A DNA stretch of 64,000 nucleotides, taken from positions 8,756 to 72,755 of the forward strand of contig CAYTSP010000257.1 of NCBI GenBank assembly GCA_964440505.1, given 5' to 3'. Shown here one piece after another: positions 6,663 to 53,949 of this stretch (position 1 is its first letter; each line of letters begins with the position of its first letter). The position numbers were made by a program, and so were the translations under genes. Origin of the DNA: an uncultured Nitrospinaceae bacterium (GTDB taxonomy: Bacteria > UBA8248). A model generated the notes under the pieces. That model worked only from the letters and a program-made list of their open reading frames with translations. It was not told the DNA's origin and ran no database searches.

Positions 6663-6688
6663 GCGAAACCTCTTATTCCCTTCGCTTT

Positions 6689-7651: not shown

Positions 7652-7882
7652 CCAAGAGATTCAAAGTCCGTTCCGGGAGACGCGAATGAACATCCGGACC
7701 GAAACCTCCGAGACGCCATATCGCGAACCGGGAAATGGAACGACCAATTTCTTTGGATGATAACAAACATCCTTGATATTTCCAGAAAAACCAAATGCCC
7801 CTGGAGACTCTTGACCCACTCCTATGAGCCACGTTGTGCATAGATACGAAATACGAGTCAATACATAAGCCGCTTCAGAGTG

Positions 7883-9346: not shown

Positions 9347-10107
9347 AGACGAAATTTTTCGCCCAGATAAACATCCCGAGCCTTGTCGCTCGAAGCGATT
9401 TCCTCCGGGGCACCGGACTCGAGTATCCGCCCCTCATTGATGATGTATATCCTGTCGGATATTTGAAAGGCCTCGCGTACATTGTGGTCCGTGATGATGA
9501 CCCCGATTCCACGAGCTTTCAGGCCCGCTACAATATCCTGGATATCGTGAACCACAATGGGATCAATGCCGGCGAAAGGCTCATCAAGGAGCATAAAAGC
9601 GGGATTTGTGGCCAATGCCCGAGCAATTTCTACACGCCTTCTTTCACCGCCGGAGAGAGCATAGCCTTTCACGGATTGAATGTGCTCGATATCCAGATCC
9701 TCCAGAATCTCGTTCAATCGCCTCTCGCGCTGGTTTGAATCACGGGAAACCAATTCAAGGACCGCCATGATGTTTTGCCTCACCGAAAGGCGACGAAACA
9801 CAGACGCCTCCTGCGGCAAATAACTAATTCCCTGCTTGGCACGCATATACATGGGCTGGCCGGTGATTTCCCTGCCATTCAAAAAAATCTCCCCCGCATC
9901 TGGAACGATCAGCCCCACAATCATATAAAATATCGTCGTCTTGCCGGCCCCGTTTGGTCCAAGCAGGCCCACGATTTCGCCGGGCTGCACTTCGAGATCC
10001 ACACCGGAGACGACTCTTCGGCCAGAATAGCTTTTCGTCAATCCGGTTGCGCGAACAGAAACAGCACCCGTGCGTCGTATAGCATTGCCATCGGTTCGCG
10101 TAGCCAT
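9343..10107 (-). CDS. lptB: LPS export ABC transporter ATP-binding protein LptB
   Basis: Walker [13 protein letters not shown] signature [15 protein letters not shown], Walker [11 protein letters not shown]. The ORF track extends to 10188, but the conserved N-terminus begins near MATRT, so the start is placed at about 10107 to avoid overlapping lptA. Confidence 0.88.
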
Positions 10108-10111
10108 GAGC

Positions 10112-10705
10112 CTAATTGGATTTTTTACGGCGGGGTGTCTCGCTGGAAGGAAAAAGGGTGACACTGACTCTCCGGCGAGGTGAGCCATGAACTATTGTTT
10201 TGTCCTCTTTCAAATTCAACTCTATTTTGGCGCCGACCAACTGATTCTTTCCTTCCCACACACGAGGACTGCCTGTCAAAACAGCGATGCCGGTAGAGTC
10301 TCGATATTCAAGCCGAGCAGCAGTGGCGAACCTCCTTTTTGCCTGATCCATCCTCACGTTTCCGGTGGCCACAATTCTATCGACTTCCCCTGCATCGTCT
10401 TTGGAATTCGGCCTGCGCTTCGAGCCCGGTCGTTTGGCTTTCAGTGTATATACTTCGAGGCGATTCGCCTTTATGTGCATGTTTCCCTGGTTCGCCTTTA
10501 CATCTCCGATGAACACGATGAGATTCTTCCGGCTGTTCACTTCCATCTTATCGGAGGTAATGTGGATGGGGGCCTTGCGGTCTAACCGGCTTTGCTTGTT
10601 TTTCTGCTGTGCAAATGAGTTAGCGCCGCTCCATAATAAAAAGACCAGGCAAGACCCCAAAGCAATGGGGCCGAGGCGCTTCAGGCGGAAGTTTTTCGGT
10701 TTCAA
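10112..10705 (-). CDS. lptA: LPS transport periplasmic protein LptA (OstA-like)
   Basis: Signal peptide, then an OstA_N-like beta-jellyroll sequence. Located between lptC and lptB. Confidence 0.72.
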
Positions 10706-10740
10706 AACAGCCCTCCATTCGGGATCGGCCGTATATTCCC

Positions 10741-11352
10741 CTAGTTGGCACGAATTGGTTTATTTCCTCTTTCTTGCTTGAGGAAATCCTCTCTCGCACC
10801 GTATATCGTAGCGCTAACTTTCTCCTTCAGTTTATAATTTCCCAGATCGGTTTGCCCTTGCAGGCCGGTACCAACCAGACGAAAACGAGACCCCTCCATC
10901 AAAACCCGCGAATCCGTATCGATACGTTTTTCTTTTGAGCGAAAATACAAAGAGTCTGTTTTCATTGAAACGCCATTCGACGCCAGGATGGTGACATTGC
11001 CGCTGATCCTGATGTTTCGACTCTCGTTCTGCATGGTACCTTCCTGAGCAATCACATGCGCCGGCTCACCTTCTTTCGGATAAAACCGAAGCTTCAGATT
11101 CTTCAGAATGGTCAAACCTTTTTGACGGTACACCTTTGCGGAGTCCGCCCATAACTCCCATTCCCTGACGCCTTTCGTGTTTTGAACAACATGCACTTTG
11201 TCTATATTAACGTCTGCATCCGAGTCGGTGAGCGAAATTTTGCCCACATCAAGATAATGACTCGAAGAACCCACGATGAAATAGGCAATAGTACCGCCAA
11301 TCGCGAGCAGAAAGCCCAGCAACACCATTCTCAGCATCTTACGGAAAAGCAT
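10741..11352 (-). CDS. lptC: LPS export system protein LptC
   Basis: Single N-terminal TM helix plus LptC-like periplasmic domain, 203 aa. Immediately upstream of lptA/lptB. Confidence 0.7.
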   Translation of the reverse strand: MLFRKMLRMVLLGFLLAIGGTIAYFIVGSSSHYLDVGKISLTDSDADVNIDKVHVVQNTKGVREWELWADSAKVYRQKGLTILKNLKLRFYPKEGEPAHVIAQEGTMQNESRNIRISGNVTILASNGVSMKTDSLYFRSKEKRIDTDSRVLMEGSRFRLVGTGLQGQTDLGNYKLKEKVSATIYGAREDFLKQERGNKPIRAN

Positions 11353-17918: not shown

Positions 17919-17995
17919 TGGTAGCGGCGGAGGGACTTGAACCCCCAACACTACGGATATGAGCCGTATGCTCTAACCGGTTGAGCTACGCCGCC
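17919..17995 (-). tRNA. tRNA with CAU anticodon: elongator tRNA-Met or lysidine-modified tRNA-Ile2. Not an initiator.
   Basis: Hand-folded cloverleaf on the minus strand: acceptor GGCGGCG/CGCCGCU, D-stem GCUC/GAGC, anticodon stem UACGG/CCGUA with loop CUCAUAU, T-stem GGGGG/CCCUC with loop UUCAAGU, 3' CCA encoded. G1-U72 pairs and the anticodon stem lacks three G-C pairs, so it is not tRNA-fMet. The 3' end is 31 nt upstream of the tilS start, same strand. Confidence 0.85.
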
Positions 17996-25244: not shown

Positions 25245-27377
25245 TCAGCCATGAACTTCCATCAACTTCTTGACCAAAGCGACATTATGTCGGTGGCCAC
25301 TTCTCTCCGCGGTCACTTTCCCTCGGATAGGACGACCGGTTAAATACAGATCTCCGATAACGTCAAGAATTTTATGTCGAACGAACTCATTGGGAAATCG
25401 CAGTTGGGTATTCACGACACGCGCCTTGTCCACAAGAATCACGTTATCCCAACGACCCCCCTCGGCCAGGCCCATTTTCTCGAGCGACTCCAATTCAGAA
25501 ACAAAACCAAACGTACGAGCGGGTGCGATTTCTTCTTGAAAACTCAATGCATTCTTATGTTCATACAGATAGGATTGTTTTCCAATCGGCTCAGGATAAT
25601 CGATGAGGTATGAAACGGAAAAAGAATCCGCTGGCTCTATACGAATATAACCCTTCTCGTCGGCCGGCTCACCTATTTCGTAAACCTTATCAACCCACAA
25701 GTCTTCGCGTTTTTCCTTTTGATCCTCAATACCCGCTTCTTCAAGCAAGCGGCAAAACTCCACTGCCGAGCCATCCATGACGGGCACTTCCTCGCTCATC
25801 TTGATGAGTATATTGCTAATCTTATAAGCGTGCAGCGCGCTCATCAGATGCTCTATCGTTCGAGCCGTCACAGCTCCATTGCGCAAGTTCGTCGCATGGT
25901 TGGTACCAGCCACAAAATCGACATTCGCCCTCACAATATCGGGGCTCGTCACGCTGCCGAACTGAATCCCGCTCCCCGGCGGCAAGGGTTCAATGATTAA
26001 TCCCGTTTTCAGCCCTGAATGAAGCCCCCGACCATACAACACGACACTCTTCGAAATACTCCTTTGATTTGTTTCCCTAAGCGTCGCTGAAGCCGGTAAT
26101 ACGGGCTCTATATCGTATGCTTTAATTTTTCGCTTTAAAGCAGGCTCCGTCATACCTACAGCCTGGGCGGTTTTGTTGATATCCCAGCCGTGCTCTTCCA
26201 AATGGAAGGACAGGTATTGCCTCTCCCACTGAGTTCTGGCCACATTAAAATTGGATGGGACGTCGTCTTTTGATGTATCCGCCTCGAAATCAGAAACTTC
26301 GCGTATCGCATGCGGCAAGTGGGCGATTCGAATCTCCGATCCTTGTGATGCATATGCTGCTTTGGTCACTGCGCCTTTTAGTTCAGCTATATTGCCCGGC
26401 CAGTCATAGTCTTCTAGTAGTGCAATGACATCCTCTGAAAATTTCTTTTCATGCCTGCCAATTTCAGTGCATTCATTCAAAAACCTGTTGGCTAACGGTA
26501 GAATGTCCTCTTTTCGTTCGCGCAAAGAGGGCAAATTTATTACATCGGCGCCTATTTGGGTGGACAAGGTTCGTACGTAAGTCTTGTCTTTCGGGGTCCC
26601 CATGTGATCAAGGGACACCACCAAACGTATTGAATCCTTTGCATACCCAAGGAATCGAGCGAGAAACCTCTCACGCTCCGCCATGGGCAACTGCTCCAGA
26701 CCATCAAGATATACCGTCCCTTGAAAGGTATCGGGCACCAGCCGCTCCAGTGTCTCTTCCCATTCGTTTACCTCAGGCACCGGAAACAGAGAGCGGCAAT
26801 GAACTGGCCTAAAGCCTTCTTCTTCCTTGATACCATTCTTATGAATCACCTTTGCAATAAAACGCTTGCCGGTTCCCCTTTCGCCCGCAATCAACAAGGG
26901 GCCAATATCTTTCGCCGCCCTCCTGATAGCTCTTCGAACCCTTTGAATACTCTTGCTGGCGCCGTCAAGCATCACATCAACGACATCATTTACCTTGAAT
27001 TCCTTGGCCCTTCGCGACTGAACAGCGGAATCGACTATACGCAAAACCGCATCAATAGACAGAGGTTTTTCAATAAAATTGAAAGCGCCCAGCTTGGTTG
27101 CGGCCACCGCGGTTTCAATATTACCGTGACCAGACATCACAACGACTTCGATATCCGCGTTCGACTCCTTCACCGCTTGCAAAGTCTTGATTCCATCAAT
27201 GCCCGGCATCCACACATCAACCAAAACCACATCAGGAGTTTCAGTTCGAACCAACTGAAGGGCAGTTTCTCCAGACTCCGCCCGCTCTACACGATACCCT
27301 TCATCGTGCAAAACATCTTCCAGGCTGGCGAGTATCTCACGCTCATCATCGACGATGAGGACATGTCCCTTATCCAA
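25245..27377 (-). CDS. Fusion protein: NtrX/NtrC-family response regulator (receiver, degenerate AAA+, Fis-type HTH) joined in-frame to UDP-3-O-acyl-N-acetylglucosamine deacetylase LpxC
   Basis: A single stop-free 710-codon frame on the minus strand. Residues 1-120 form a receiver (DDE pocket, phospho-Asp in VLVDVWMPGIDG, conserved S/T and K). Residues about 135-345 are sigma-54-activator-like AAA+ (GERGTGK Walker A, RERKEDI, YDWPGN), then HTH TQWERQYLSFHLEEHGWDINKTAQAVGMTEPALKRKIK. Residues 435-710 align along the full length of LpxC (NQRSISKSVVLYGRGLHSG, TIEHLM, MDGSA, ARTFGF, FVRHKILDVIGDL, RSGH). Starts with TTG and overlaps the ntrY stop by 8 nt. Confidence 0.8.
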   Translation of the reverse strand: MDKGHVLIVDDEREILASLEDVLHDEGYRVERAESGETALQLVRTETPDVVLVDVWMPGIDGIKTLQAVKESNADIEVVVMSGHGNIETAVAATKLGAFNFIEKPLSIDAVLRIVDSAVQSRRAKEFKVNDVVDVMLDGASKSIQRVRRAIRRAAKDIGPLLIAGERGTGKRFIAKVIHKNGIKEEEGFRPVHCRSLFPVPEVNEWEETLERLVPDTFQGTVYLDGLEQLPMAERERFLARFLGYAKDSIRLVVSLDHMGTPKDKTYVRTLSTQIGADVINLPSLRERKEDILPLANRFLNECTEIGRHEKKFSEDVIALLEDYDWPGNIAELKGAVTKAAYASQGSEIRIAHLPHAIREVSDFEADTSKDDVPSNFNVARTQWERQYLSFHLEEHGWDINKTAQAVGMTEPALKRKIKAYDIEPVLPASATLRETNQRSISKSVVLYGRGLHSGLKTGLIIEPLPPGSGIQFGSVTSPDIVRANVDFVAGTNHATNLRNGAVTARTIEHLMSALHAYKISNILIKMSEEVPVMDGSAVEFCRLLEEAGIEDQKEKREDLWVDKVYEIGEPADEKGYIRIEPADSFSVSYLIDYPEPIGKQSYLYEHKNALSFQEEIAPARTFGFVSELESLEKMGLAEGGRWDNVILVDKARVVNTQLRFPNEFVRHKILDVIGDLYLTGRPIRGKVTAERSGHRHNVALVKKLMEVHG
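25248..26075 (-). other. lpxC: LpxC deacetylase domain of the fusion CDS (boundaries approximate)
   Basis: Aligns from the residue that corresponds to E. coli LpxC Met1 (here a GAA codon at 26075..26073) to the C-terminus. Zinc/catalytic residues E78-H79 (TIEHLM), H238/D242/D246 (FVRHKILDVIGDL) and H265 (RSGHRHN) are all present. Confidence 0.8.
26076..27377 (-). other. NtrX-like regulator module of the fusion CDS: receiver (about 27377..27018), AAA+ (about 26975..26342), Fis-type HTH (about 26246..26118)
   Basis: Domain order and motifs as listed for the parent CDS. The AAA+ part lacks GAFTGA and carries DG instead of DE in Walker B. Confidence 0.7.
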
Positions 27378-29634
27378 TGGAAGCCGTCCTTTCCTTTTCA
27401 GGCGTGATGTCCACAGCAGGCGCCAATGGCAACGTTACGCGAAAAACAGAACCCGCTGGATAGTTATCTCGCACGCCTATCGTTCCATTATGGTCCGCCA
27501 CAATGCGATGACATATAGCTAAACCCAACCCCGAGCCTCTGTCTTTCGTAGAAAAGTAAGGAGAGAATATATGGCCTTTCACGTCTTCCGATATACCCTG
27601 CCCCTGGTCGGCAACTTCAACGACTATCATATTTCTGTCCGCATCACTCCATGCCTGCAAATCTATCTCGCCTTCGACCTCTTGGGATTCAAAGGCATTT
27701 TCCAGCAAATTGATGAACACTCGCTGCAACTGTTCGGGATCCGCCATGACCGCTGCATTCCCTGCAGTGATTTGAATGGAAAATTCCACATTCCCTTTTC
27801 TGCCACGATATAAATTCGCAACATCTTCAATGAGGGGAGCAAACCCGCAAAGCCTCAACCTCGGCTCCGGCATTCGTGCAAACCGGCTGAATTCATTCAC
27901 CATTTCAATCAGACTCGTTACTTGATTGATAATAGTATCCGTACAAGATTCAAATACTTCCGCAAAATCATAGGCTTCACTTTCAAATTTTCTTCTCATT
28001 CTCTGAGCAGAGAGCTGAATCGGTGTAAGCGGATTTTTGATCTCATGCGCGATGCCACGAGCCACTTCTTGCCATGCGGCCACTTTTTGAGCCCGTATCA
28101 AAGCCGTCAAATCATCAAACACAATGACTGCTCCGAGCCTGCCACCATCCGCGCTTTTGAGCAGGGTCAAGCTCGCGCGTAGCGTCAGTACGCGGCCATC
28201 AATCATGATCTCCACTTGCTCCGAAGCGCTTTGGTGTTTTCGATCCCTCATTGAACGCATCAACTGACGGACGGGTTCGAGATGCGCGCTTTCGAAAACC
28301 TCGCTGAACATTCGACCCACGGCATCTTGAGGCTCAACGCTCAGCAACTCCCCAGCCGCTTTGTTGAGAATAGTAACGCGACCCCGGCGATTGATGGATA
28401 TCACACCTGCTCCGATATTTTCGAGCATCGCTTCCATATATCTGCGCCTTCTGTCGATCTCCAGGTTGGAGCGGCGCAGGGTTTCAGAAGACTCTTCGAT
28501 TTTCTCTTTGTTGGCCAATAATTCTTCTGTCATGCTGTTGAATGTGTTGACCAAAATACCTACCTCGCCATCTGCTTGCGCATCTACGCGATGTTCGAGA
28601 TCGCCATCCGACACCGCCCTTGTGGCTTCCGCCAGTTTTTCGATGGGAACCGTGATCCCGCGCGCAAGGTAGAAGCCAAACCATATGGCGGCAAACAAAA
28701 TCAGCAAGGTGACCACCAAAAAAGTGATGATGTAGTTGGCTTTAATTGGGTTCTTGGACAATTCCAACTCTTTATAATTCACGAAAGAATCGGAGATGCC
28801 CCTGATCCTCTCCACGAGCCTATCTGAAACATATTTGGATACGACGATAAACCCCACCACTTTTTTTTGAATCTTCAGAGGCGCCACGCCATAGATGACA
28901 TCGCCTTTTTCCCAGTTCTCTATACTCGAGCGCGACTCCCCATCAATCACCTGATCCACGTATCCCACCAGTGGTGAGAATGTTGCGGCTCGTTCCAACC
29001 CCGGACGATTGACCGATACGATCTCTTTTCGACCCCTATCGTAGAGTTGGATGAAGTCTACCCCCAAGCTCTTTCTCTCGGACTCTAATTTTTGTTCAAT
29101 CGCCTTGGGGTTTGCTAATATGTCGGAGTGCGACTTCTCCAACATAAGCGCTACTCTACTCGCACTGAACAGCGCGTTTCGCTCCACCTCCCGATAATAC
29201 GTTTGAGCCACCTCGAACGACCCTTTGAGCGCTCTCTCCACATTCATGTTGAACAAGGCGTTAAAGCTTTGGTTTATCAGGCCGCTGGCCACCACAAAAA
29301 GAGCCACTACAGGGATGAGCGTAAATCCGACAAAAGCCAACACGAGCTTTAATTGCAAGCGCGAACGGCCGGCGCCCGTTCTCCCCTCGTAGTAAAGACG
29401 CACCAAGTGCTTTGCCACCAAAAGAATAGCCACCATGAGCAGAATGATGCTCAGGTTCACAAGCGAAAATACAACGACGTTGTTAAGCAGGGGGACTCCC
29501 GGTTCAAGCTCCTTGAAGTAAATCCAGGCCGCGAACGAAAGAGTCGCTATGATGATCAAGGCGATGAAAGAGCGCAGAAGCGTTCTTCGTCGACGGGAAG
29601 AGATTTCCAGATTTTTCAGTCGCTTTGGATACAA
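27370..29634 (-). CDS. NtrY-like sensor histidine kinase (N-terminal multi-TM region, HAMP, PAS, HisKA, HATPase)
   Basis: 754 aa. H-box ARGIAHEIKNPLTPIQLSAQRM is the NtrY-type signature. N, G1 and G2 ATP-lid motifs. Several N-terminal TM helices. Confidence 0.85.
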   Translation of the reverse strand: MYPKRLKNLEISSRRRRTLLRSFIALIIIATLSFAAWIYFKELEPGVPLLNNVVVFSLVNLSIILLMVAILLVAKHLVRLYYEGRTGAGRSRLQLKLVLAFVGFTLIPVVALFVVASGLINQSFNALFNMNVERALKGSFEVAQTYYREVERNALFSASRVALMLEKSHSDILANPKAIEQKLESERKSLGVDFIQLYDRGRKEIVSVNRPGLERAATFSPLVGYVDQVIDGESRSSIENWEKGDVIYGVAPLKIQKKVVGFIVVSKYVSDRLVERIRGISDSFVNYKELELSKNPIKANYIITFLVVTLLILFAAIWFGFYLARGITVPIEKLAEATRAVSDGDLEHRVDAQADGEVGILVNTFNSMTEELLANKEKIEESSETLRRSNLEIDRRRRYMEAMLENIGAGVISINRRGRVTILNKAAGELLSVEPQDAVGRMFSEVFESAHLEPVRQLMRSMRDRKHQSASEQVEIMIDGRVLTLRASLTLLKSADGGRLGAVIVFDDLTALIRAQKVAAWQEVARGIAHEIKNPLTPIQLSAQRMRRKFESEAYDFAEVFESCTDTIINQVTSLIEMVNEFSRFARMPEPRLRLCGFAPLIEDVANLYRGRKGNVEFSIQITAGNAAVMADPEQLQRVFINLLENAFESQEVEGEIDLQAWSDADRNMIVVEVADQGQGISEDVKGHIFSPYFSTKDRGSGLGLAICHRIVADHNGTIGVRDNYPAGSVFRVTLPLAPAVDITPEKERTASIG

Positions 29635-29637
29635 AAT

Positions 29638-30243
29638 TCACATTCCTTTAGAGCTGAACGTCCGGGAATAGCTCCAATCAGAATTCTTCCCCCAAAAAGC
29701 GAGTAAATAATTAAAGGGAAAAACAAAATCCACATGATTCAATCGCGCTCTGATTTTGACATAATATTGACCATTGAGGGACAAAGCCTCGCCAGACAGA
29801 ATGGGTGTACCATTCAATTCACGCATCCAGTCCATCATTTCGCCCTGGCTTTTCGTCACTTTTCTTTCAATGTCTTTCGCGCCTTCTCTGAGATGAAAAG
29901 TGTATGTTTTTTTCAGGGCGCTATATTTCACTTGATGATGCAATTGCCGCGCAGAGACTTCCAGATCATAGATCAGCTTGCGAGAGCGGAGGAGACTTAC
30001 ATCAAAGATGAACTTCGTGGTCACACCGCTATGGATGGCTTCCAGAAGTTTTGGCGAAAATACGCCCAGAAGAGAACCAAAAACGAGCAACTCCCCTTTC
30101 TTTTCAACAACGACGATATCCTGTATTCGAATTCCGCCTTGGTCATCCGTTGCGGAGAGCGCCGGCCCGACCAGAAAGAAGAGCACACAAATGGCTATGC
30201 TTAATTTTCTCAGAACAAATGTTTTCTGGAAGTTAGATAACAT
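29638..30243 (-). CDS. DUF4390-like periplasmic/secreted protein, the conserved first gene of ntrYX-type operons
   Basis: 201 aa with an N-terminal hydrophobic signal. This position (4 nt upstream of ntrY) and size match the DUF4390 gene that precedes ntrY in beta-proteobacterial operons. Family assigned from memory of that context, not from a computed search. Confidence 0.5.
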   Translation of the reverse strand: MLSNFQKTFVLRKLSIAICVLFFLVGPALSATDDQGGIRIQDIVVVEKKGELLVFGSLLGVFSPKLLEAIHSGVTTKFIFDVSLLRSRKLIYDLEVSARQLHHQVKYSALKKTYTFHLREGAKDIERKVTKSQGEMMDWMRELNGTPILSGEALSLNGQYYVKIRARLNHVDFVFPFNYLLAFWGKNSDWSYSRTFSSKGM

Positions 30244-30360
30244 ATGTTCCCCTTGGCCCTTAAGTTCAATGCTACCTCATACAAGAAAAGCTCTCAATCC
30301 CTTGTTTGGCCTCTCTGCCTTCAAGGCTTCAAAAAACACATCCAGATGGCGCGCCGTGGT

Positions 30361-33057
30361 CTACATCCATTTTTTTTCCTGTTCAACGGTTTCTATGCTC
30401 TTTCGGAGTTCATACAGGGTTTCGAGAGCCTGGCGAGGTGTAATGGAATCCAGATCCAGGCCTTTCAACACCTTCTCGACTTGCGATTCCGCACGTGAAA
30501 ACAATGGCAATTGCCCATTTTCCCGGCGATTTTCCAAAAAAGATTTTTCTCCTCCGGAGCAGGACATGGCCTCCGTACTCTCAAACCTGGAGAGCAAAGT
30601 CTTCGCCCGGTCGATAACCTCTTCTGGAAGTCCCGCCAACCTGCCTACATGAATGCCGTAGCTTCTGTCGCAACTCCCATCGGTTACTTTTCGTAAAAAA
30701 ACGATTTCATCACCCCATTCTCGCACTTCGACCGCTAAATTTTTCACACAGGCGAGTTCTTTCGAAAGTTCGGCCAACTCATGATAATGGGTTGCGAACA
30801 AGGTCCTCGCCCTGTGACGAACCTCATTATGCAGATACTCTACAATTGACCAGGCAATGCTCACTCCATCGTAAGTGCTCGTGCCTCGCCCGACTTCGTC
30901 CAACACGATGAAACTCCTCTGCGTCGACTCTCTCAATATAGTGGCCGTCTCCACCATCTCGACCATGAAGGTGCTTTGCCCTTCCAAAAGTCGATCATGC
31001 GCGCCGACGCGAGTGAACACCCTGTCAACCAAACCGATTTCCGCCCTCTTGGCGGGTACGAAGCTGCCAATTTGCGCCATCAGAATGATGAGCGCCGATT
31101 GACGCAGATAAGTGGATTTCCCGGCCATATTCGGCCCTGTGACGATAAGTATTCGGCGGTCATCGCGAATCGACAAATCGTTCGGTACGAAAGAGAGGCC
31201 GGGATTCTCCGACTCCATGACGGGATGCCTGCCCTCGATGATTTCAAGATTCGTAGAATCCGTAATTTGGGGCCTCACGTATCCATTTTTACGCGCAACG
31301 AGCGCCAAGGACAAAACAGCATCAAGAATCGCTATCCTCTCCGCGGCGGCGAGTACGCGCCTGGCCTGTTTCGATATTTCGGCTCTTAAACATCCAAAAA
31401 GCATGAACTCAAGATGATGGGCTTTCTCCTCTGCTCCAAGGATGTCCTCTTCCATCTTCTTCAACTCGGAAGTGATATAGCGCTCTGCAGAAACCAGAGT
31501 CTGCTTGCGCGTATATTCTGTCGGCACCTGCTCACTGAAGCGTTTGGCTATCTCGAGATAATATCCAAAAACACGATTAAATCCGATTTTCAAAGGCAGT
31601 CCCGTTCGTTGTTTTTCCTCGCTTTCATAATTTTTCAGCCACGTATCGCCCTCTTGCTGAGCCCTTCTCAATTTTGCGAGTTCCTGATCATGCTCAGCGC
31701 GAAATATTCCTCCTTCGCGAATCGAGACAGGCGGATCATCCACAATCGCGTTCTTCAGCGCCAATGCTACGTCCTCGAGAGAATCCCACCCCGACAAGAC
31801 GGTACGAAACAACCCGGAATCCATCTCCTTTATTGCCTCAAAAACCTCTGGCAACATTCCCAAAGAAGCGCCGAGCCCCGCCAGGTCCCGGGCGTTTGCC
31901 GTTTGAGAACCCACGCGACCCAGGAGCCTTTCGATATCCTGAATAGGTTCAAGGACACTTTTGAGCATATTCAGGATTTCGGACTTATCCACGAGCTCCT
32001 GTACCGATTCGGCACGATAATCGATGGCTTTTTTTTCAATCAAAGGTGAAAGGACCCATTTTTTCAGCAGGCGTCCTCCCATGCCTGTCTGCGTCTCATC
32101 CAGCAGGCCAAACAAAGTACCTTTATTCCCGCGATCCACAGCCGAACGAGTGAGTTCTAAATTTCGTAACGTGGCGGCATCGAGAATCATGGTGTCAGAG
32201 AGTCGGGAGAAAAACACAGGTTTGATGTGGGGAAAATCGCCAGGCTGGTTTTCTTTGAGATACGCCAAAACACCTATGGCGGTATTTACCGCCACCGGAT
32301 TCGCCAGAACATTTGCTTCATTCGGAAAGACGGAGTCCAGGCTTTTGGAATCAAGCGGCTCATCAAAGGTGGCGGCTGGTCTTCTTTCAACATGGATATT
32401 CAGTTCACCCATTTTGCTTTTCAACTCATCAGACGGAGAAAATACATCCGGCAAGATGAGTTCACGAGGAGAAAGCCTCTCCAGTTGGTTGCAAATAAGC
32501 GTCTCGGCGGCATCGCCTTCCACCTGTGTCGCGCAAAACTCACCGGTCGAGCTATCGAGCCATGCCATTCCCCAAAGCGTCTTTCCTTCTCTGGCCGATA
32601 AGGTAATCCCCGCCAGGTATTGAGATTCCTTGCTATCCAGTAACTCGAGGTCGGCAATCGAAGTACCCGGAGTGAGGACGCGGGTCACCTCGCGCCTCAC
32701 AACTCCCCTGCTTTCTCCCGCATCTTCCACTTGCTCGCATATGGCGACTTTATAACCTGCCTCCAGCAATCGCCCGCAATAGGAGGATGCCGAATGACAA
32801 GGCACGCCACACATCGGTATAGGTCCCTTGTCATCGCTCTGGCGCGACGTCAGCGTGAGTTCCAGTACTTTCGCCCCGAGTTTCGCGTCTTCATAAAACA
32901 TCTCGAAAAAATCACCCAACTGAAAAAACAGCATCGCGTCCGGATAGCGTCTTTTCATTTCCAGGTATTGGCGCATCGCAGGTGATGGGCCACGGCTTTT
33001 ATTGCCCGATGTATTTTTTGCTTTCCTGGCATGCAGAGTGCTTTTTGAGGGAGGCAT
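30361..33057 (-). CDS. mutS: DNA mismatch repair protein MutS
   Basis: 898 aa. Mismatch-binding N-domain, Walker A GPNMAGKST, MutS signature STF(M/A)VEM, C-terminal HTH-like end. Confidence 0.95.
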   Translation of the reverse strand: MPPSKSTLHARKAKNTSGNKSRGPSPAMRQYLEMKRRYPDAMLFFQLGDFFEMFYEDAKLGAKVLELTLTSRQSDDKGPIPMCGVPCHSASSYCGRLLEAGYKVAICEQVEDAGESRGVVRREVTRVLTPGTSIADLELLDSKESQYLAGITLSAREGKTLWGMAWLDSSTGEFCATQVEGDAAETLICNQLERLSPRELILPDVFSPSDELKSKMGELNIHVERRPAATFDEPLDSKSLDSVFPNEANVLANPVAVNTAIGVLAYLKENQPGDFPHIKPVFFSRLSDTMILDAATLRNLELTRSAVDRGNKGTLFGLLDETQTGMGGRLLKKWVLSPLIEKKAIDYRAESVQELVDKSEILNMLKSVLEPIQDIERLLGRVGSQTANARDLAGLGASLGMLPEVFEAIKEMDSGLFRTVLSGWDSLEDVALALKNAIVDDPPVSIREGGIFRAEHDQELAKLRRAQQEGDTWLKNYESEEKQRTGLPLKIGFNRVFGYYLEIAKRFSEQVPTEYTRKQTLVSAERYITSELKKMEEDILGAEEKAHHLEFMLFGCLRAEISKQARRVLAAAERIAILDAVLSLALVARKNGYVRPQITDSTNLEIIEGRHPVMESENPGLSFVPNDLSIRDDRRILIVTGPNMAGKSTYLRQSALIILMAQIGSFVPAKRAEIGLVDRVFTRVGAHDRLLEGQSTFMVEMVETATILRESTQRSFIVLDEVGRGTSTYDGVSIAWSIVEYLHNEVRHRARTLFATHYHELAELSKELACVKNLAVEVREWGDEIVFLRKVTDGSCDRSYGIHVGRLAGLPEEVIDRAKTLLSRFESTEAMSCSGGEKSFLENRRENGQLPLFSRAESQVEKVLKGLDLDSITPRQALETLYELRKSIETVEQEKKWM

Positions 33058-33059: not shown

Positions 33060-33458
33060 TTACTCCGCCTTCGATTCACGGGGGGATAGGCTCATCCGGG
33101 ATTTGGAATCGGATTGCGAGGTAAGTTCATTACGCGCAGTTGTGGATTCTTCGGTCGCAGGATTTCCCATTGGGAGGAACTTGCCACTTTGCTCCCGCGC
33201 CTCATCCAGATTACTCTCCAGCGACTTGACTTCCCGCTTCAATTTCCCGATTTGGGTCCTGAACTTCAACCTGTCTAATGCGCCACCAAGCCATGCCACC
33301 ATGAACCCGCATGCAAACACGGCCAATAGAACGTAAAAAAGAGGCAAGTTGATGCTGCCTTGATAATAGGCAACAGTCACCGGCTTCATATTGATGACAC
33401 CGAAGCTCAGAATCGCCAATGACAGGATCAAACCGATGATGAGTCGAAGGCTGCCCAT
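33060..33458 (-). CDS. LapA-like (DUF1049) inner-membrane protein
   Basis: Two N-terminal TM helices followed by a coiled-coil, charged C-terminus. 132 aa, typical of the LapA/YciS family. Confidence 0.55.
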   Translation of the reverse strand: MGSLRLIIGLILSLAILSFGVINMKPVTVAYYQGSINLPLFYVLLAVFACGFMVAWLGGALDRLKFRTQIGKLKREVKSLESNLDEAREQSGKFLPMGNPATEESTTARNELTSQSDSKSRMSLSPRESKAE

Positions 33459-37698: not shown

Positions 37699-38706
37699 TT
37701 ATCCCCTCGGGTGGCTCTTGTCCAAAAGTCCCCGCAGTTTTTGCCTGTCCACATGCGTGTAAACCTCGGTGGTGGAAATATCCGAATGCCCGAGCATCGC
37801 CTGGACGGCCCGCAAGTCGGCCCCGTGACTAAGCAGATGAGTCGCAAAGCTGTGCCGGAATACATGGGGACTCACGCCCTTGCCCACGCCCGCTTCTTTC
37901 GCCCATCTCTTGACCCTCGCCCAGAAAGCTTGACGGGTCATGGGCCCTCCCCGGCTCGTGAGAAATACATAATCCGATCTCCGGGCGCGAAGAAGACTCA
38001 GCCGAGCGGTATCCAGATAATCCGCAAGCATTTCTTTCGCCGCATCTCCTACGGGAACAAGCCGGGATTTATCTCCTTTGCCATGGACGATGCAAAATCC
38101 CGATTCAAGTTCAATTTGATTCAGCTTGAGTCGAATGATCTCGCTGACGCGCATGCCGGTGGCGTACAAAAGCTCGAACATGGCCCTGTCCCGAATCGCC
38201 TGCGGCGTTTTGTCATCGGGCGCCTGCAGAATCCTGGACATATCTTCTTGAGAAAGCGTCTTGGGCAAACGCTTCCACTTCGAAGGTTGCACGATGTCCG
38301 CCGTAAAATCCTCTTTTATATCCCCATCGCGGACCAGCAACCTGGCCAGCGCGCGAATGGACGCCAGGTGCCGCCGAAGGGTGGTATCCGATTTTCCCCT
38401 CTCCCGTTTATCCTTGAGATAATCGATAACGGTGCTTTTCGACCAATCCGCCGGTGAAACATCCTCGTTTTCTTGCAGCCAATAGAAAAACGATTCGATG
38501 TCCCGCCCGTAACTCTCCACGGTATTGATCGCACGACGACGCTCGATCAGGAGAAAATCCCTGAAAGTCCTTAAGGTATCGACCAAGCGGGCATCCAGCG
38601 ATACGCCATTATTTTTTTCATGATCTTCGGTCGAAAATTTTTCTGTCGTCAACGTCCGAACCTCATTGCTCAGGATTTGCCCCATGTGAGGCGGGTGAAA
38701 CGACAC
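37699..38706 (-). CDS. xerD: Tyrosine site-specific recombinase XerD/XerC
   Basis: Phage-integrase N-terminal SAM-like domain and catalytic domain with R...HxxR...Y (LGHSDISTTEVYTHV). 335 aa. Housekeeping context. Confidence 0.78.
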   Translation of the reverse strand: MSFHPPHMGQILSNEVRTLTTEKFSTEDHEKNNGVSLDARLVDTLRTFRDFLLIERRRAINTVESYGRDIESFFYWLQENEDVSPADWSKSTVIDYLKDKRERGKSDTTLRRHLASIRALARLLVRDGDIKEDFTADIVQPSKWKRLPKTLSQEDMSRILQAPDDKTPQAIRDRAMFELLYATGMRVSEIIRLKLNQIELESGFCIVHGKGDKSRLVPVGDAAKEMLADYLDTARLSLLRARRSDYVFLTSRGGPMTRQAFWARVKRWAKEAGVGKGVSPHVFRHSFATHLLSHGADLRAVQAMLGHSDISTTEVYTHVDRQKLRGLLDKSHPRG

Positions 38707-40349
38707 CAGGAATCATATGAGGAAGAATCTATTTTCTTCGCCACGAAAATATAGAAACAGGCGGCCAGTGATACCTCAAGCATCATCATCGCCAATTTCA
38801 GGGCCGACGAGCCCTGCGAATCCCACAATTGCAGATGAACGAGTTGAAGGTGAACGATATATGCAAGCAACCCCGTCAAGATTCCAAGCACCAGAAGCCT
38901 GTTCAGAGAATGAAGCAACTCCTTTTTCGGGAAATCGCTCCACTCCCGCATGACGCCTCTCAGCAACAACACCGCGTTCAAAGCGCTTGAGCACGATGTG
39001 GCGAGTGCAAGACCGATAAACCCGAGCGGAAACATCAGGGCAACGCTGAGCGCTACGTTCGCGAGCACAGCGATATTGGCGCACCGCACCGGGAAACTCG
39101 TGTTCAATCGAGCGTGGAACACCCCGGCTAAAAGCCTCGTGACTCCGAAAAACATCAGCCCGACTGCATACGCCTGCAAGGCGGCCGCGCTTGCGACTGT
39201 ATGGTCTTGCGTAAAGGCGCCTCGTTCGAAAATAACCTCCATGATCGGATGAGCCAAAGCCATCAGGCCGAACGTAGAGGGAATCGTGATGAACAGCGTG
39301 AGCCTCCCCGCTTCGAGCATGGCGTTGCGCTCGGCGTCTCCGGATGTGGAATTTTCCCTGTTCTTCGCCGCATAATCCGACAAGATCGGCAATACGGCGG
39401 AAACCACCGCGAGACTCAATATGCCATGAGGAAGCTGAACCAACCGATTCGCATAGTAAAGATAAGAAATGGAACCTTCGGCCAGGAACGAAGCCAGCCA
39501 GCGGTCAACGAGAACATTGACCTGAAAAATAGCGCCTCCAAGAGCTGCCGGCCCCATCAGAGCCAAGCATCTGCCGACGCCCTCCACCCGCCACGGGATG
39601 GAAGGAAGCGGCAAAATCCGTAGTTTTCCCATGAAAGGGAGTTGGAAAAAAAACTGCGCGGCCCCGCCGATTACGACGGCCCAGGCGAGCCAACGGATTG
39701 CCTCCGTCCTACTCACCAAAAAACCCGCTAATAAAAGGGCGATGATGATGACCACGTTCTGGAGCGCGGGCGCGAAAGCGGGCACGAAGAAGCGGCGCGC
39801 CGCGTTCAACATACCGGCTGCGACCGCCCACAGGCCGATAAAAATAATGAACGGAAACATGATCCTGGTCAGTTGCGCAGCAAGGCGCAGTTTTTCCGGG
39901 TTGCTCGAAAAACCAGGCGCCAGCGCTCTCATCAAAGGTTCTGCGAACCAGATCCCGACCGCACAGCCCACGCTTCCTGCGAAGATGAGAAACACCAACA
40001 TGCCGCCGGCGAATTTTTTGGCCTGCCTGGCTCCGGATTGTTCACGCACGTCGGAGTAGACGGGAAGAAAGGAGGAGCTCAGCGCACCTTCCATGAACAT
40101 GCGCCTGAAAAGGTTGGGAATCGCGAAGGCGACGAAAAAGGCATCGGCCATCATCGCGGCGCCAAAGAGTTTGGCGATCAGCAAATCACGGAAAAAACCC
40201 GCAACCCGACTGATGAGAGTCGCCAAACTTACGGGACCCGCAAACCTGGAAATGCTCTCCTCCGCAGCGGTATCACCATTTCCTGCCGACGCAGCAGCAG
40301 GAACATTTTTTTCCCGTCCTGGATTAGAGGATTCAGGTGGTGTGGTCAC
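38670..40349 (-). CDS. murJ: Lipid II flippase MurJ (MviN)
   Basis: 14-TM MOP-superfamily protein with the MurJ N-terminal pattern (LISRVAGFFRDLLIAKLFGA). 559 aa including a probable N-terminal over-extension. Confidence 0.86.
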   Translation of the reverse strand: MTTPPESSNPGREKNVPAAASAGNGDTAAEESISRFAGPVSLATLISRVAGFFRDLLIAKLFGAAMMADAFFVAFAIPNLFRRMFMEGALSSSFLPVYSDVREQSGARQAKKFAGGMLVFLIFAGSVGCAVGIWFAEPLMRALAPGFSSNPEKLRLAAQLTRIMFPFIIFIGLWAVAAGMLNAARRFFVPAFAPALQNVVIIIALLLAGFLVSRTEAIRWLAWAVVIGGAAQFFFQLPFMGKLRILPLPSIPWRVEGVGRCLALMGPAALGGAIFQVNVLVDRWLASFLAEGSISYLYYANRLVQLPHGILSLAVVSAVLPILSDYAAKNRENSTSGDAERNAMLEAGRLTLFITIPSTFGLMALAHPIMEVIFERGAFTQDHTVASAAALQAYAVGLMFFGVTRLLAGVFHARLNTSFPVRCANIAVLANVALSVALMFPLGFIGLALATSCSSALNAVLLLRGVMREWSDFPKKELLHSLNRLLVLGILTGLLAYIVHLQLVHLQLWDSQGSSALKLAMMMLEVSLAACFYIFVAKKIDSSSYDSWCRFTRLTWGKS

Positions 40350-40467
40350 AAAATTCCTGGCACCGGGGCGGAGAACTTGACAACCCTTTGTTCCGTGGTA
40401 TTTTACCGGGGCTGTGAGACAGCCTCAAGGGAAACATTTCAACTATATTCACGGAGAATGAAACAAA

Positions 40468-40722
40468 TTGCCACATATTCGTTCGGCTAAAAAGCGCAAT
40501 CGTCAAAATATCGTTCGCCGCGCCAGAAACCGCGCTATTCGCACGCAGTTTCGCAACACCATCAAAGAAGTTTTGAATAGCGAAGAAAACCCCGAAGAAC
40601 TGCTGAAACAAGCCCAGTCGCAACTGGACCGCGCAGCCACCAAAGGAATTATCCACCAAAAGACAGCGTCGAGACGCGCGGGAAGATTGGCCAAGCGAGT
40701 TCACGCGGCCTCTGCGAAATAG
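40468..40722 (+). CDS. rpsT: 30S ribosomal protein S20
   Basis: (M)PHIRSAKKRNRQ...: classic S20 N-terminus, 84 aa. Start codon is TTG with GGAG 11 nt upstream. Confidence 0.9.
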   Translation: MPHIRSAKKRNRQNIVRRARNRAIRTQFRNTIKEVLNSEENPEELLKQAQSQLDRAATKGIIHQKTASRRAGRLAKRVHAASAK

Positions 40723-41767: not shown

Positions 41768-42304
41768 CTAAAAGCCCTCTAATACGAGGCTCACGAGGTC
41801 TTCCGACAGTGAGTCGGCTACCTGTTGATTGGCGTTCGAACGGTTTGCGTCGCTTCGCGCGATGGATGAGGAAACCGCGAATTCGGCATAAGACTCCATG
41901 TCCTGATTGATGAGCAATTTCCTCCGCTCTTTGTTATGCAGCCGTATTCGGGTGCGCACAACGACACGATATTGCAAAGCCCTGTCAGTCCGAGTGAAGC
42001 CAATTGGAGAGAGGCGATACTCGCGTAAAACGCCTTCAAGAGCGATATCCGCATCGGGGGAGCCGGTAACCCGAAGGCGACCGTCCCGCAAGAATCTCCC
42101 TATTACAGCTTTCGTAACGGCGCGCCCCAGGCCCGGCTCGTTCGTCTGGTTCCGGAATGGTGGTATCGAAATCGTTCGAGCGTCCTTAAGGTCCCTGGGG
42201 CGCAATGTTCCCTCGAGGTCGTAGCCGCAGCCCGCCGTCAGGAAAACGATAAGCAGGAGAGGGAAACGGAGCGTACGGATCATCCTCAAAAGTACTCCGC
42301 TCAA
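41768..42304 (-). CDS. lptE: LPS-assembly lipoprotein LptE
   Basis: Lipobox LTAGCG, LptE-like body, 178 aa, immediately upstream of holA. Confidence 0.68.
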   Translation of the reverse strand: MSGVLLRMIRTLRFPLLLIVFLTAGCGYDLEGTLRPRDLKDARTISIPPFRNQTNEPGLGRAVTKAVIGRFLRDGRLRVTGSPDADIALEGVLREYRLSPIGFTRTDRALQYRVVVRTRIRLHNKERRKLLINQDMESYAEFAVSSSIARSDANRSNANQQVADSLSEDLVSLVLEGF

Positions 42305-42855
42305 ATGAAGACCTCCAAGGAGAGTTCTCGATTTTTCACGCTGCTAAAAGCAATTTGCTCGCTCAGCGCAATCAACTCGTCATAATTCTCGTCATCTGGT
42401 TCGCAAACAAGAATATCGACATCCCAGGGGTTTCCGATGACGCCCCGTATCGCACCGTTCATGATCTCCGTGGCCACGGGAGCGAAGCCGCCGGGGAGTT
42501 GCGCAAAGCCTGAAACCTGCAACGACAAATTCTTCGCCGACGTCTTCATCATTCTTCCAAAAATCTCCTTCGCGCGCCGGTAGAGCTTCGTCAGGGTCAA
42601 GTCCTCCAAAGAACCGACTCCTGCGAACAAAACGTATTCGGGCGCGAGTCGTCCTTTTGAAGCCAGCATGGCCTGGGATTCCCATACACCGCTCAATTTG
42701 CCTTGTTGCACCAAGCGGCTCGCCTCGTTTTCCAGCAAGCGATCGATCGCTCCCAGTCGCCCTTGAAACGGAAAATCTTCCACCGCGAACATAGAGACAG
42801 CGGCGAAGCTCTTTACCTCGTGCAGACCCTGAGGAAACAAGCGAAGGCGAATCAC
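42301..42855 (-). CDS. Hypothetical protein resembling the N-terminal (non-catalytic) domain of leucyl aminopeptidase PepA
   Basis: By-eye alignment to the PepA N-domain: AAVSMFAVED vs SACIVVGVFE, LVQQGKLSGVWESQAML vs LLRRGELEGKPGQTLLL, YVLFAGVGSLEDL vs RILLIGCGKEREL. No M17 catalytic domain follows. ATGA overlap with lptE. Confidence 0.5.
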   Translation of the reverse strand: MIRLRLFPQGLHEVKSFAAVSMFAVEDFPFQGRLGAIDRLLENEASRLVQQGKLSGVWESQAMLASKGRLAPEYVLFAGVGSLEDLTLTKLYRRAKEIFGRMMKTSAKNLSLQVSGFAQLPGGFAPVATEIMNGAIRGVIGNPWDVDILVCEPDDENYDELIALSEQIAFSSVKNRELSLEVFI

Positions 42856-45679: not shown

Positions 45680-46844
45680 ATTCTTTCCAAATCGGTTTTT
45701 TGAAATATCCTTGAATCAATAAATCATCTCCAATAACTTCATGTGTTACATTAAATAACCCGGGAAGAGATTGCAATTCCTCTTCATCAAGGCCTGAAAT
45801 CGCGCCCGGCGCCTGCGCATCCCCCACTATCAGGGGCGCCAAAAAATACAAGAGCCGATCCGCCAAGCCTTCCCGAATGAAAGAACCGTGAACCCGACCG
45901 CCGCCTTCTACTAAAATATGACGAACGCCGCGATTTCCCAATACCTCCAACACCGGAGCGAGCGACACCCGGCCTTGCGGGTCTGCTCCTACGCGAACGA
46001 CTTCCGCACCTGCCTCGCGCAACGCCGTTTCCTTAGCCGGGGGCGATGCGTCCGTAGTCGCAACGATGGTGGAACTCCCCTGCCGGGAGGCCAGGACCCG
46101 GGCGTGAGAGGGCGTCCTGAGCCTGGAATCCAGGACGATTCTCAGCAATGGCTTGCCTGAAACTCCGCCGGGTCGTGGCGTAAGCAACGGGTCGTCTTCC
46201 AGCACCGTCTCCACGCCGACCAGAATGGCGTCCACTTTGTTTCTGAAATGATGGCCTGCGTTTCTCGCCGCCTCGCCCGTTATCCATCTGCTCTGCCCGC
46301 TTCGGGTGGCGATTTTTCCATCCAGACTCGCGGCGGCCTTCAGGGTGAGAAAAGGACGGCCACACCGCCACCAATGAAAATATACTTCATTCTGGCGCAC
46401 CGCCTCCTCGGCCATTATACCGATTTCCACCTCGACGCCACGTTCGCGCAGGTGCGAAAATCCTTTGCCTGAAACTTGCGGATTCGGGTCCGAGACAGCG
46501 GCGATGACGCGAGAAACGCCTGAATCCGCCACGAAAGGCGCGCAGGGAGGCGTTCTGCCCTGGTGAGAACACGGCTCCAGGGTGAGGATCAAAACGCCGC
46601 CTCGCGCACGCCCACCCGCTTCCTGGAGAGCCAGAGCTTCCGCGTGCGGCTCCCCCGCCTTTTTGTGCCAGCCCCGGCCCGCTACCTCTCCGCCGGCGTC
46701 AAGAACAATGGCCCCGACAAGCGGATTGGGGCTCGTCATTCCCTCCGCGCGTCCCGCGAGAGAGAGGGCCTCGGCCATCAACTCGTTTTTACGCTCGGCA
46801 GAGAGGCGAACCATCAAAATGAAATCCCGCTCAATGGATTTCAA
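45657..46844 (-). CDS. ribD: Bifunctional diaminohydroxyphosphoribosylaminopyrimidine deaminase / 5-amino-6-(5-phosphoribosylamino)uracil reductase
   Basis: CMP/dCMP deaminase zinc motif HAEALAL...PCSHQGRTPPC, C-terminal RibD reductase domain. The start is probably internal to the listed ORF. Confidence 0.9.
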   Translation of the reverse strand: MKSIERDFILMVRLSAERKNELMAEALSLAGRAEGMTSPNPLVGAIVLDAGGEVAGRGWHKKAGEPHAEALALQEAGGRARGGVLILTLEPCSHQGRTPPCAPFVADSGVSRVIAAVSDPNPQVSGKGFSHLRERGVEVEIGIMAEEAVRQNEVYFHWWRCGRPFLTLKAAASLDGKIATRSGQSRWITGEAARNAGHHFRNKVDAILVGVETVLEDDPLLTPRPGGVSGKPLLRIVLDSRLRTPSHARVLASRQGSSTIVATTDASPPAKETALREAGAEVVRVGADPQGRVSLAPVLEVLGNRGVRHILVEGGGRVHGSFIREGLADRLLYFLAPLIVGDAQAPGAISGLDEEELQSLPGLFNVTHEVIGDDLLIQGYFKKPIWKEFEGGKGV

Positions 46845-51746: not shown

Positions 51747-51757
51747 ACCGAAACCCC

Positions 51758-53940: not shown

Positions 53941-53949
53941 TTTATCCCA

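Follow-up and report, generated by a model that had tools for sequence, protein, structure and literature searches.

A 64,000-nucleotide stretch of DNA from an uncultured Nitrospinaceae bacterium (hereafter the window; contig CAYTSP010000257.1) encodes a 710-aa protein in which a response regulator is fused to LpxC, an enzyme of lipid A biosynthesis. Its gene follows those of a DUF4390 protein and an NtrY-type sensor histidine kinase. Comparison of this module with its fused and unfused relatives makes it probable, as far as sequences can tell, that a two-component system dedicated to lpxC has moved from transcriptional control to direct, phosphorylation-dependent control of the enzyme. We favour this reading because the receiver (REC) domain and the enzyme are invariant while the activator module between them is decaying or deleted, because the kinase is kept across unfused, long and short forms, and because lpxC has a sigma-54-type promoter in 7 of 10 unfused loci. 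We also lean towards the broader view that LpxC is the enzymatic output of a response regulator in hundreds of species, in which the kinase and the DUF4390 protein would gate lipopolysaccharide (LPS) synthesis within seconds, and that this arrangement evolved from sigma-54 control of lpxC, with intermediates still alive.

A tightly coupled module ending in LpxC

The features of the module and its immediate flanks are:

30244..30360 (-), spacer between mutS and the DUF4390 gene, 117 nt, from direct sequence reading
29638..30243 (-), DUF4390 (PlrP-like) protein, 201 aa; PF14334, 91.6 bits, E 5e-26
27370..29634 (-), NtrY-type sensor histidine kinase, 754 aa; NtrY_N, HAMP, PAS, HisKA and HATPase_c (Pfam)
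25245..27377 (-), REC-AAA+-HTH-LpxC fusion (HTH, helix-turn-helix), 710 aa; TTG start
27017..27377 (-), REC domain of the fusion, residues 1-120; PF00072, 103.9 bits, Pfam match 6-114
26103..26969 (-), AAA+, lid and Fis-type HTH of the fusion, residues ~137-425; partial Pfam matches
25245..26066 (-), LpxC domain of the fusion, residues 438-710, and stop codon; PF03331, TIGR00325
23484..25193 (-), purM and purN, directly 3' of the fusion gene; Pfam

These three genes are tightly coupled. Their open reading frames (ORFs), all on the minus strand, are confirmed as the co-directional, closely packed set described in a first-pass annotation of this DNA, with one correction to the spacing. Read directly, the sequence has the kinase start 3 nt, not 4, after the DUF4390 stop, while the TTG start of the fusion gene overlaps the kinase stop by 8 nt as reported. 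A Shine-Dalgarno-like sequence lies 5' of each of the three starts. A consensus scan found no terminator-like site on the coding strand from the DUF4390 start to purM, as would be expected of the single transcript suggested earlier; site counts in this promoter and terminator scan were below the shuffle expectation, so that it neither proves nor disproves such a transcript. The sole promoter-like match upstream of the module is a weak sigma-70-like one (30297..30269, 9/12) in the 117-nt spacer, which is plausibly the only place for a module promoter. No sigma-54-type promoter was found in the mutS-DUF4390, fusion-purM or LapA-upstream spacers of the window by the relaxed scan described below. 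Downstream, the purM, purN, lolA and rseP genes named in the first-pass annotation are present, together with ispG and proS. As purM overlaps the stop codon of the fusion gene by 4 nt in two related loci (L003 and L027), the transcription unit probably runs past the three genes, and purM-purN are probably co-transcribed with the fusion gene.

Within the fusion, Pfam matches span the REC domain (6-114), a partial sigma-54-type AAA+ domain (139-285), the lid (286-366), HTH_8 (383-421) and LpxC (438-706, E 3e-83). That the regulator carries LpxC was borne out by full-length matches above cut-offs to PF03331 (280 bits against a cut-off of 27; profile positions 1-267 of 268) and to the TIGR00325 lpxC equivalog (238 bits against 187.25). 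The LpxC domain follows a 15-residue linker in an unbroken reading frame, starts with the QR(S/T) motif that is native to the LpxC N-terminus, and stops 15 residues past the catalytic His (13-15 in fused LpxCs generally) without a C-terminal tail. In an alignment to the Pseudomonas aeruginosa LpxC crystal chain, E509, H510, T622, H668, K669, D672, D676 and H695 correspond to E77, H78, T190, H237, K238, D241, D245 and H264. These include, among E77/H78, H237/D241 and H264, what we take, from established structural work on LpxC, to be the zinc ligands (two His and one Asp) and the catalytic Glu/His pair.

We surveyed motifs in the 710-aa fusion and 120 homologues (121 sequences), of which 116 are full-length, 104 being long forms and 11-12 short. 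The catalytic and zinc positions of LpxC were invariant in all 116 full-length members, and we propose from this conservation that the fused LpxC is a catalytically competent enzyme. A further ten LpxC positions (S444, T458, G459, L524, K526, C542, E581, P595, L648 and T657) are invariant in the fused clade but not outside it. An internal start giving free LpxC was considered and rejected. The AAAGGAG before the LpxC domain encodes the conserved N-terminal Q-R-S of LpxC, and the nearest in-frame ATG, GTG or TTG lies 16 nt past it, too far for a Shine-Dalgarno sequence.

The fusion is widespread and its gene order is conserved

A protein search recovered the same full-length architecture in more than 100 protein clusters, at 38-96% identity; those that a source names are from Nitrospinae/Nitrospinota, Tectomicrobia or Schekmanbacteria. 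A shorter REC-LpxC form of ~445 aa was also among the matches. We then scanned one genome per bacterial species with a motif specific to the fused clade, reading ±10 kb around each gene. At least 600 stretches matched and at least 558 were confirmed, the lineages named for them being Nitrospinota, Desulfobacterota-type, Binatia, Thermodesulfovibrionia, Bdellovibrionota and Acidobacteriota. The best 80 of the at least 600 matched stretches divide among three groups. Long fusions come from Nitrospinota, Desulfomonile, Syntrophaceae and other Thermodesulfobacteriota. Those of the short form come from Binatia, Syntrophobacter, Syntrophorhabdus, Bdellovibrionota, Thermodesulfovibrionia, Holophagales and Acidiferrales, and the third group, of unfused regulators, from Geobacteraceae, Desulfuromonadales and Syntrophales. 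Complete chromosomes with the fusion include OZ244799.1, which is 95% identical to the window, OZ252246.1, OZ245011.1 and, from Binatia, OZ243961.1. Three contigs carrying the fusion (L012, L037 and L055) are labelled as a Promethearchaeota archaeon, Margulisiibacteriota and Enterobacteriaceae; such labels are implausible for an LPS enzyme of the fused clade and are probably binning or labelling errors.

When the LpxC domain was searched against 1.84 billion representatives, nearly all of the top ~45 matches (>220 bits) had LpxC at the C-terminus of proteins of 400-736 aa. After a clear break came ordinary LpxCs of 270-320 aa, at 36-43% identity. Three apparently standalone LpxCs of ~290 aa inside the fused clade were discarded, being truncated calls on contigs of 0.9-1.2 kb. 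A cluster look-up of the nearest ~290-aa matches gave no standalone LpxC from Nitrospinota.

The first-pass annotation had proposed comparing synteny in related genomes, and this comparison upheld the module. In Nitrospinota, the order LapA-domain gene, mutS, DUF4390 gene, kinase gene, fusion gene, purM, purN, lolA, rseP, ispG and proS is kept down to 43% fusion identity. It is also kept in a genome whose fusion is of the short form; this protein (P0053) is encoded at the identical place, its gene again overlapping that of the kinase by 8 nt. A Schekmanbacteria metagenome-assembled genome (MAG) keeps kinase, fusion, purM and purN without the DUF4390 gene. An NtrY-type kinase lies immediately upstream of 33 of the 58 fused genes with enough upstream flank, and about half of the more distant fusions are without an adjacent kinase. 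Two assembled Nitrospinales chromosomes have an orphan fusion, in the order greA, methyltransferase gene, fusion, purN, lolA and rseP; the arrangement fusion-purN-lolA-rseP thus survives where the kinase is missing. A second conserved context has ruvB, instead of the DUF4390 gene, immediately upstream of the kinase. It was seen in Binatia, Acidiferrales and several 'delta' MAGs with short REC-LpxC (L031, L038, L046 and L074, also L066 and L067).

These comparisons leave practically no room for the explanation that two separate genes were merged by a frameshift in sequencing or assembly. Identical architecture and length recur in many independent assemblies of differing origin, some of them megabase-scale contigs or assembled chromosomes, the 15-residue linker is read without a break of frame, and the whole fusion ORF is under purifying selection. 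An artefact of this kind is thus refuted.

The receiver and enzyme are conserved while the activator module decays

Across the motif survey, REC residues D10, D11, D54 (the phospho-acceptor), S/T82 and K104 were invariant apart from alignment gaps, one short form being gapped at the REC positions, and F101 was kept in at least 90% of homologues. The region between REC and LpxC is in a different state. The GAFTGA loop was found in none of the 121 fused sequences. Walker A is kept in the AAA+ module (GERGTGK in the 710-aa fusion), while the Walker B glutamate is replaced by G, D, N or A in most fused sequences; in the 710-aa fusion Walker B reads YLDG, with DG rather than DE. The 710-aa fusion therefore lacks both features expected of a sigma-54 enhancer-binding protein, GAFTGA and a DE Walker B.

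Identity to the 710-aa fusion shows the same division, being 50-99% for REC and 52-97% for LpxC, with AAA+, lid and HTH dropping to 21-36% in distant members. In the window's own lineage, the ratio of nonsynonymous to synonymous substitution rates (dN/dS) was 0.02-0.045 for REC, 0.025-0.057 for LpxC, 0.04-0.10 for HTH, 0.11-0.17 for the lid and 0.19-0.27 for AAA+. The middle AAA+/HTH module evolves 5-8 times faster, and is relaxed, not neutral, in this lineage. The HTH probably still works there, judging by its constraint, and the 710-aa fusion may consequently also bind DNA.

With a neighbour-joining tree built from the REC and LpxC columns, parsimony gave at least three independent deletions of AAA+/HTH, each leaving REC-LpxC. 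A remnant of the last HTH helix remains in the short form P0053.

Several deep-branching long fusions of 730-735 aa (P0061, P0062, P0066, P0076 and similar) have a fuller AAA+ domain with extra Pfam AAA families. Walker B is intact in P0061 (FLDEVD), and P0070, P0076, P0084 and P0096 still show E[LIVM]FG as a trace of the loop region; none of these proteins has GAFTGA. These proteins look like an intermediate stage of AAA+ decay.

A probably bifunctional kinase and a predicted DUF4390 partner

The kinase has three to four N-terminal transmembrane segments, a periplasmic domain of ~170 aa (~125-295) and one more transmembrane segment, as judged by a transmembrane scan, followed by HAMP-PAS-HisKA-HATPase. 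Its NtrY_N match (PF19312) scored 25.8 bits against a cut-off of 23.2 and covered only profile positions 6-139 of 291; the match was stronger in homologues than in the 754-aa kinase itself. A comparison with solved structures gave only generic HisKA/PAS kinases, with no NtrY-specific match. The H-box that the first-pass annotation had called diagnostic is present as AHEIKNPLTPIQLSAQRM, with the His at residue 530 (HEIKN). The HEIKN motif marks bifunctional kinase/phosphatases (PMC13001219).

The gene immediately 5' of 33 fused genes and 14 unfused regulators encodes a full-length homologue of this kinase, with 33-95% identity. From the 8-nt overlap in the window and from this conserved adjacency, we infer that the kinase phosphorylates the receiver of the fusion.

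The DUF4390 protein has a hydrophobic N-terminus (residues 7-34, ...PALSA/TDD) that a hydropathy heuristic, used without a signal-peptide predictor, reads as a signal or anchor. Its gene is directly 5' of the kinase gene in eight of the fused loci (L002-L004, L006-L008, L010 and L027), and it precedes the kinase in Thermodesulfovibrionia short-form loci (L061 and L063) and in two unfused loci. In Bordetella, genetic evidence identifies the DUF4390 protein PlrP as a periplasmic third component that restrains the phosphatase activity of PlrS (PMC13001219). By analogy, the DUF4390 protein of the window is predicted to be a periplasmic accessory of the kinase. The likeness in gene order drawn by the first-pass annotation is sound, as the order DUF4390-ntrY-response regulator has been described for NtrYX-family systems of beta- and gamma-proteobacteria; that survey of PlrP covered proteobacteria only (PMC13001219).

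Most unfused loci have a sigma-54-type promoter motif before lpxC

Ten loci from Desulfuromonadales, Geobacteraceae and Syntrophales have a standalone lpxC with an NtrY-type kinase gene directly downstream and then a separate regulator, giving the order lpxC-(DUF4390)-kinase-regulator. The kinases of the unfused loci are 36-40% identical to the window kinase over the full length, including the N-terminal region, and the receivers of the unfused regulators are 51-59% identical to the REC domain of the fusion. In 13 of the 14 unfused regulators, GAFTGA (once GSFTGA), Walker A and Walker B are all intact, which makes these 13 genuine sigma-54 activators. When the N-terminal 430 residues of the fusion were searched with phmmer, the lpxC-adjacent activators scored 235-260 bits, distant fused N-termini 215-280 bits and Brucella NtrX 166 bits.

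Of the 10 unfused loci, 7 have a sigma-54-type promoter 45-80 nt 5' of lpxC (TGGC-N7-TTGCA; L071, L075, L078, L079, L082, L083 and L085, at about locus positions 6500-6650). A strict regular expression gave no match in the unfused loci. The sites came only from a relaxed scan for TGGCAC-N5-TTGCA, with 9-10 of 11 positions matched and GG and GC fixed, for which the background of 7 sites in 128 kb of window sequence gives ~0.02 expected per region. The motif predicts that lpxC transcription is sigma-54-dependent in those Desulfuromonadales and Geobacteraceae that have such promoters, and we found no earlier description of this. The window encodes rpoN, in a lptC-lptA-lptB-rpoN cluster, so that the genome encodes sigma-54 although its fused regulator has lost the sigma-54 contact motif.

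A related case has been studied in Desulfovibrio vulgaris, where lpxC is the one DNA target of the NtrC-type regulator DVU2934, and the operon of the DVU2934-orthologous regulator in S. fumaroxidans has lpxC directly 5' of it (PMC3333781). Going by this published description, the arrangement appears to match the lpxC-kinase-regulator loci found here.

The standalone LpxCs beside the unfused systems (L071-L085) have C-terminal tails of 30-45 residues. These tails share similar endings (...LAWNKA, ...LAFSEA, ...LVFNKA) that are absent in all fused forms, and which may, from their sequence, be degradation signals. The C-terminal end of Escherichia coli LpxC is needed for FtsH to degrade the enzyme, according to the title of Fuhrer et al. 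(2006), cited in PMC3333781.

Comparison with known systems

The module resembles Bordetella PlrP-PlrS-PlrR in the order DUF4390-NtrY-type kinase-regulator with near-zero spacing, in the HAMP-PAS-HisKA-HATPase layout and HEIKN motif of the kinase, and in a DUF4390 protein of ~200 aa with an N-terminal export signal. It differs in that the Bordetella regulator is a plain receiver and DNA-binding protein, without AAA+ and without an enzyme, and in that rsmB lies upstream in Bordetella-type loci where mutS stands here. The published survey of PlrP is proteobacterial, whereas the module is found here in Nitrospinota and Thermodesulfovibrionia.

The first-pass annotation had called the regulator NtrX. 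The REC-AAA+-HTH_8 layout without GAFTGA does fit that name, and Brucella abortus NtrX (PDB 5m7n), which shares it, was the best solved-structure match (residues 5-421, E 1e-47). That NtrX is the closest kin, however, did not hold up, as the N-terminal module of the fusion scored 246 bits against an NF051870 equivalog cut-off of 600. The absence of GAFTGA from NtrX has been described (bioRxiv 10.1101/2023.06.06.543975). Since the GAFTGA-positive lpxC-adjacent activators are closer to the fusion than NtrX is (235-260 against 166 bits), the loss of GAFTGA was probably independent. NtrX also lacks an enzyme domain, and its effect on lpxC is transcriptional and reported to be indirect. In Rhodobacter sphaeroides, loss of NtrYX raised lpxC mRNA 8.8-fold and LPS ~2-fold, with no NtrX site at lpxC (PMC7240162). 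The link of NtrYX to the cell envelope that the earlier annotation cited has published support, which extends to lpxC expression (PMC7240162, PMC12444477).

DVU2934 and the unfused systems (L071-L085) are, like the fusion, tied to lpxC, L071-L085 by adjacency and a sigma-54 promoter and the D. vulgaris system by DNA binding. Unlike the fusion, they exert transcriptional control through separate proteins, with GAFTGA and Walker B intact and the LpxC tail kept.

Response regulators with enzymatic outputs are well known and include the methylesterase CheB, the diguanylate cyclases PleD and WspR, and the HD-GYP protein RpfG. From general knowledge of these proteins, the fusion is like them in joining an intact receiver by a flexible linker to a complete enzyme, the short forms being simply REC-linker-enzyme. 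It is unlike them in that its output is an essential envelope biosynthesis enzyme, not a signalling or chemotaxis enzyme. Regulators with enzymatic output are not new, whereas LpxC as that output appears to be. The proteolytic control of LpxC in Enterobacteria by FtsH-LapB-YejM (PMC12444477) also differs, as the fused LpxC has no tail and its proposed control acts via a covalently attached receiver. A 2025 review of lipid A regulation presents NtrYX only as a transcriptional influence and mentions no receiver-LpxC fusion (PMC12444477). We found no description of LpxC as a receiver output in the literature searched, which covers few subscription journals, and this suggests that receiver-LpxC control is a form of LpxC regulation undescribed in that literature.

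Proposed mechanism and alternatives

We propose that the DUF4390 protein, in the periplasm, would modulate a bifunctional NtrY-type kinase/phosphatase, which would in turn set the phosphorylation state of Asp54 in the receiver of the hybrid protein. The LpxC half would carry out the committed step of lipid A biosynthesis, and phosphorylation of the receiver would alter LpxC output post-translationally, most likely as a catalytic change that comes about when phosphorylation makes the protein dimerise or frees its tethered domains. The fusion module would be descended from, or sister to, the systems in which a kinase and a sigma-54 activator drive an adjacent lpxC. After fusion, the sigma-54 machinery would have become dispensable, decayed and been repeatedly deleted. 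Phosphorylation should activate lpxC transcription in the unfused systems; if this logic was kept, it would raise LpxC output in the fused ones, although this direction is a guess.

The first-pass annotation had gone further and suggested a hard-wired link between envelope-stress sensing and lipid A flux. The kinase-LpxC half of this proposal is strongly supported by comparative genomics. Envelope stress as the signal found no support. Nor do we count as functional evidence the richness of the surrounding 60 kb in envelope genes. The list itself is accurate (amidase_3, lptC, lptA, lptB, ftsH, a LapA-domain gene, murJ and lptE, and also rpoN), but lptCAB-rpoN, lptE-holA and tilS-ftsH are standard housekeeping clusters, and the lpt genes are not mutually independent.

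Several observations weigh against direct control of the enzyme by its receiver. Strong constraint on the HTH in the window's lineage (dN/dS 0.04-0.10) points to a surviving transcriptional role, which could be the principal output. Of the fused genes with enough flank to judge, ~43% have no kinase beside them, among them those on assembled Nitrospinales chromosomes. AlphaFold models of the monomers had all domains folded (mean pLDDT 83-86), but with a pTM of 0.63 for the short form and 0.52 for the long form, low-confidence linkers and no fixed REC-LpxC interface; as the relative orientation of the domains is undefined, an intramolecular interface is neither supported nor excluded. Finally, the check for a second LpxC reached only ±10 kb around each fused gene.

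The main alternative to altered LpxC activity is regulated stability, in which the receiver would be a phosphorylation-dependent degron or adaptor module, and the kinase would set LpxC abundance by proteolysis (for example by FtsH, Lon or Clp) in place of an E. coli-type C-terminal degron. The fused LpxC is indeed tail-less where its standalone neighbours have tails of 30-45 residues, ftsH is present in the window, the flexible linkers of the AlphaFold models are compatible with such a role, and proteolysis is the chief means of LpxC control in the organisms studied best (PMC12444477). However, no degron or adaptor site was recognisable in the sequence, and the ten LpxC residues specific to the fused clade fit direct domain contact at least equally well. 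We regard this alternative as unlikely, and as slightly less likely still a fusion of convenience, in which an ordinary DNA-binding regulator is joined to a constitutive LpxC and the fusion ensures only co-expression and matched stoichiometry. Purifying selection on the HTH in the window's lineage would agree with the latter, as would the lack of a predicted fixed interface and the Fis-type DNA-binding domain of the same kind in Brucella NtrX, the closest solved structure. Yet the DNA-binding and AAA+ parts have been deleted independently at least three times with an intact receiver always kept on LpxC, and a receiver without output would not keep every phospho-acceptor residue invariant at a dN/dS of 0.02-0.045.

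It is very improbable that the LpxC domain instead senses a lipid A precursor and reports the status of the pathway to the regulator, with a separate standalone LpxC as the housekeeper. The ±10 kb read around each gene leaves space elsewhere in the genome for such a housekeeper. Within that distance, however, none of 70 fused loci has a second LpxC, and the fusion gene itself belongs, together with lolA and rseP, to a conserved housekeeping cluster. The LpxC domain also passes the lpxC equivalog cut-off with catalytic and zinc ligands invariant in 116 of 116 members, and the short forms retain no DNA-binding output for a sensor to control. Direct, phosphorylation-dependent control of LpxC by the attached receiver thus remains the reading we prefer.

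Other features of the window

Upstream of the module, a LapA-domain gene (33060-33458, minus strand) is followed directly by mutS (30361-33057, minus strand). There is no lapB after it, unlike in the E. coli lapAB operon, and the two genes are paired in every Nitrospinota locus examined (L001-L004). After the classical lptC-lptA-lptB-rpoN cluster come hprK and an EIIA(Man)-type PTS gene (6240-11352, minus strand). An ORF for a XerC/D-like tyrosine recombinase overlaps the 3' end of murJ by ~37 nt as called (37699-38706 and 38670-40349, both minus strand); the true start of the overlapping ORF is probably further downstream. G+C content rises from ~0.50-0.55 to ~0.60 from ~46 kb onward (46000-64000). 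No Pfam match at E <= 1e-6 was obtained for the plus-strand ORFs at 56650-57888, 58951-59811 and 59774-61483, or for the small minus-strand ORFs at 40333-40704 and 42301-42855. Rfam and ARAGORN scans of the 64 kb gave a single match, with nothing near the module:

17919-17995 (-), tRNA-Met (CAT), between tilS and proS; Rfam/ARAGORN

Significance

LpxC, a major antibiotic target, catalyses the committed step of lipid A biosynthesis, which is usually essential, and the balance of LPS with phospholipid and peptidoglycan is understood well for only a few organisms. Nitrospinota are the main marine nitrite oxidisers and are genetically hard to study. The known forms of LpxC control act through proteolysis, protein partners or transcription (PMC12444477). 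If our reading is true, a receiver attached to LpxC would be a different solution, namely direct and reversible control by phosphorylation. It would offer experimental handles at once, in Asp54 mutants, acetyl phosphate and the natural short REC-LpxC proteins. It would also extend the DUF4390-NtrY partnership beyond proteobacteria. The comparative series, running from separate genes with a sigma-54 promoter, through the long fusion with its decayed activator module, to short REC-LpxC, would then be a natural example of regulation shifting from transcriptional to post-translational with the sensor unchanged.

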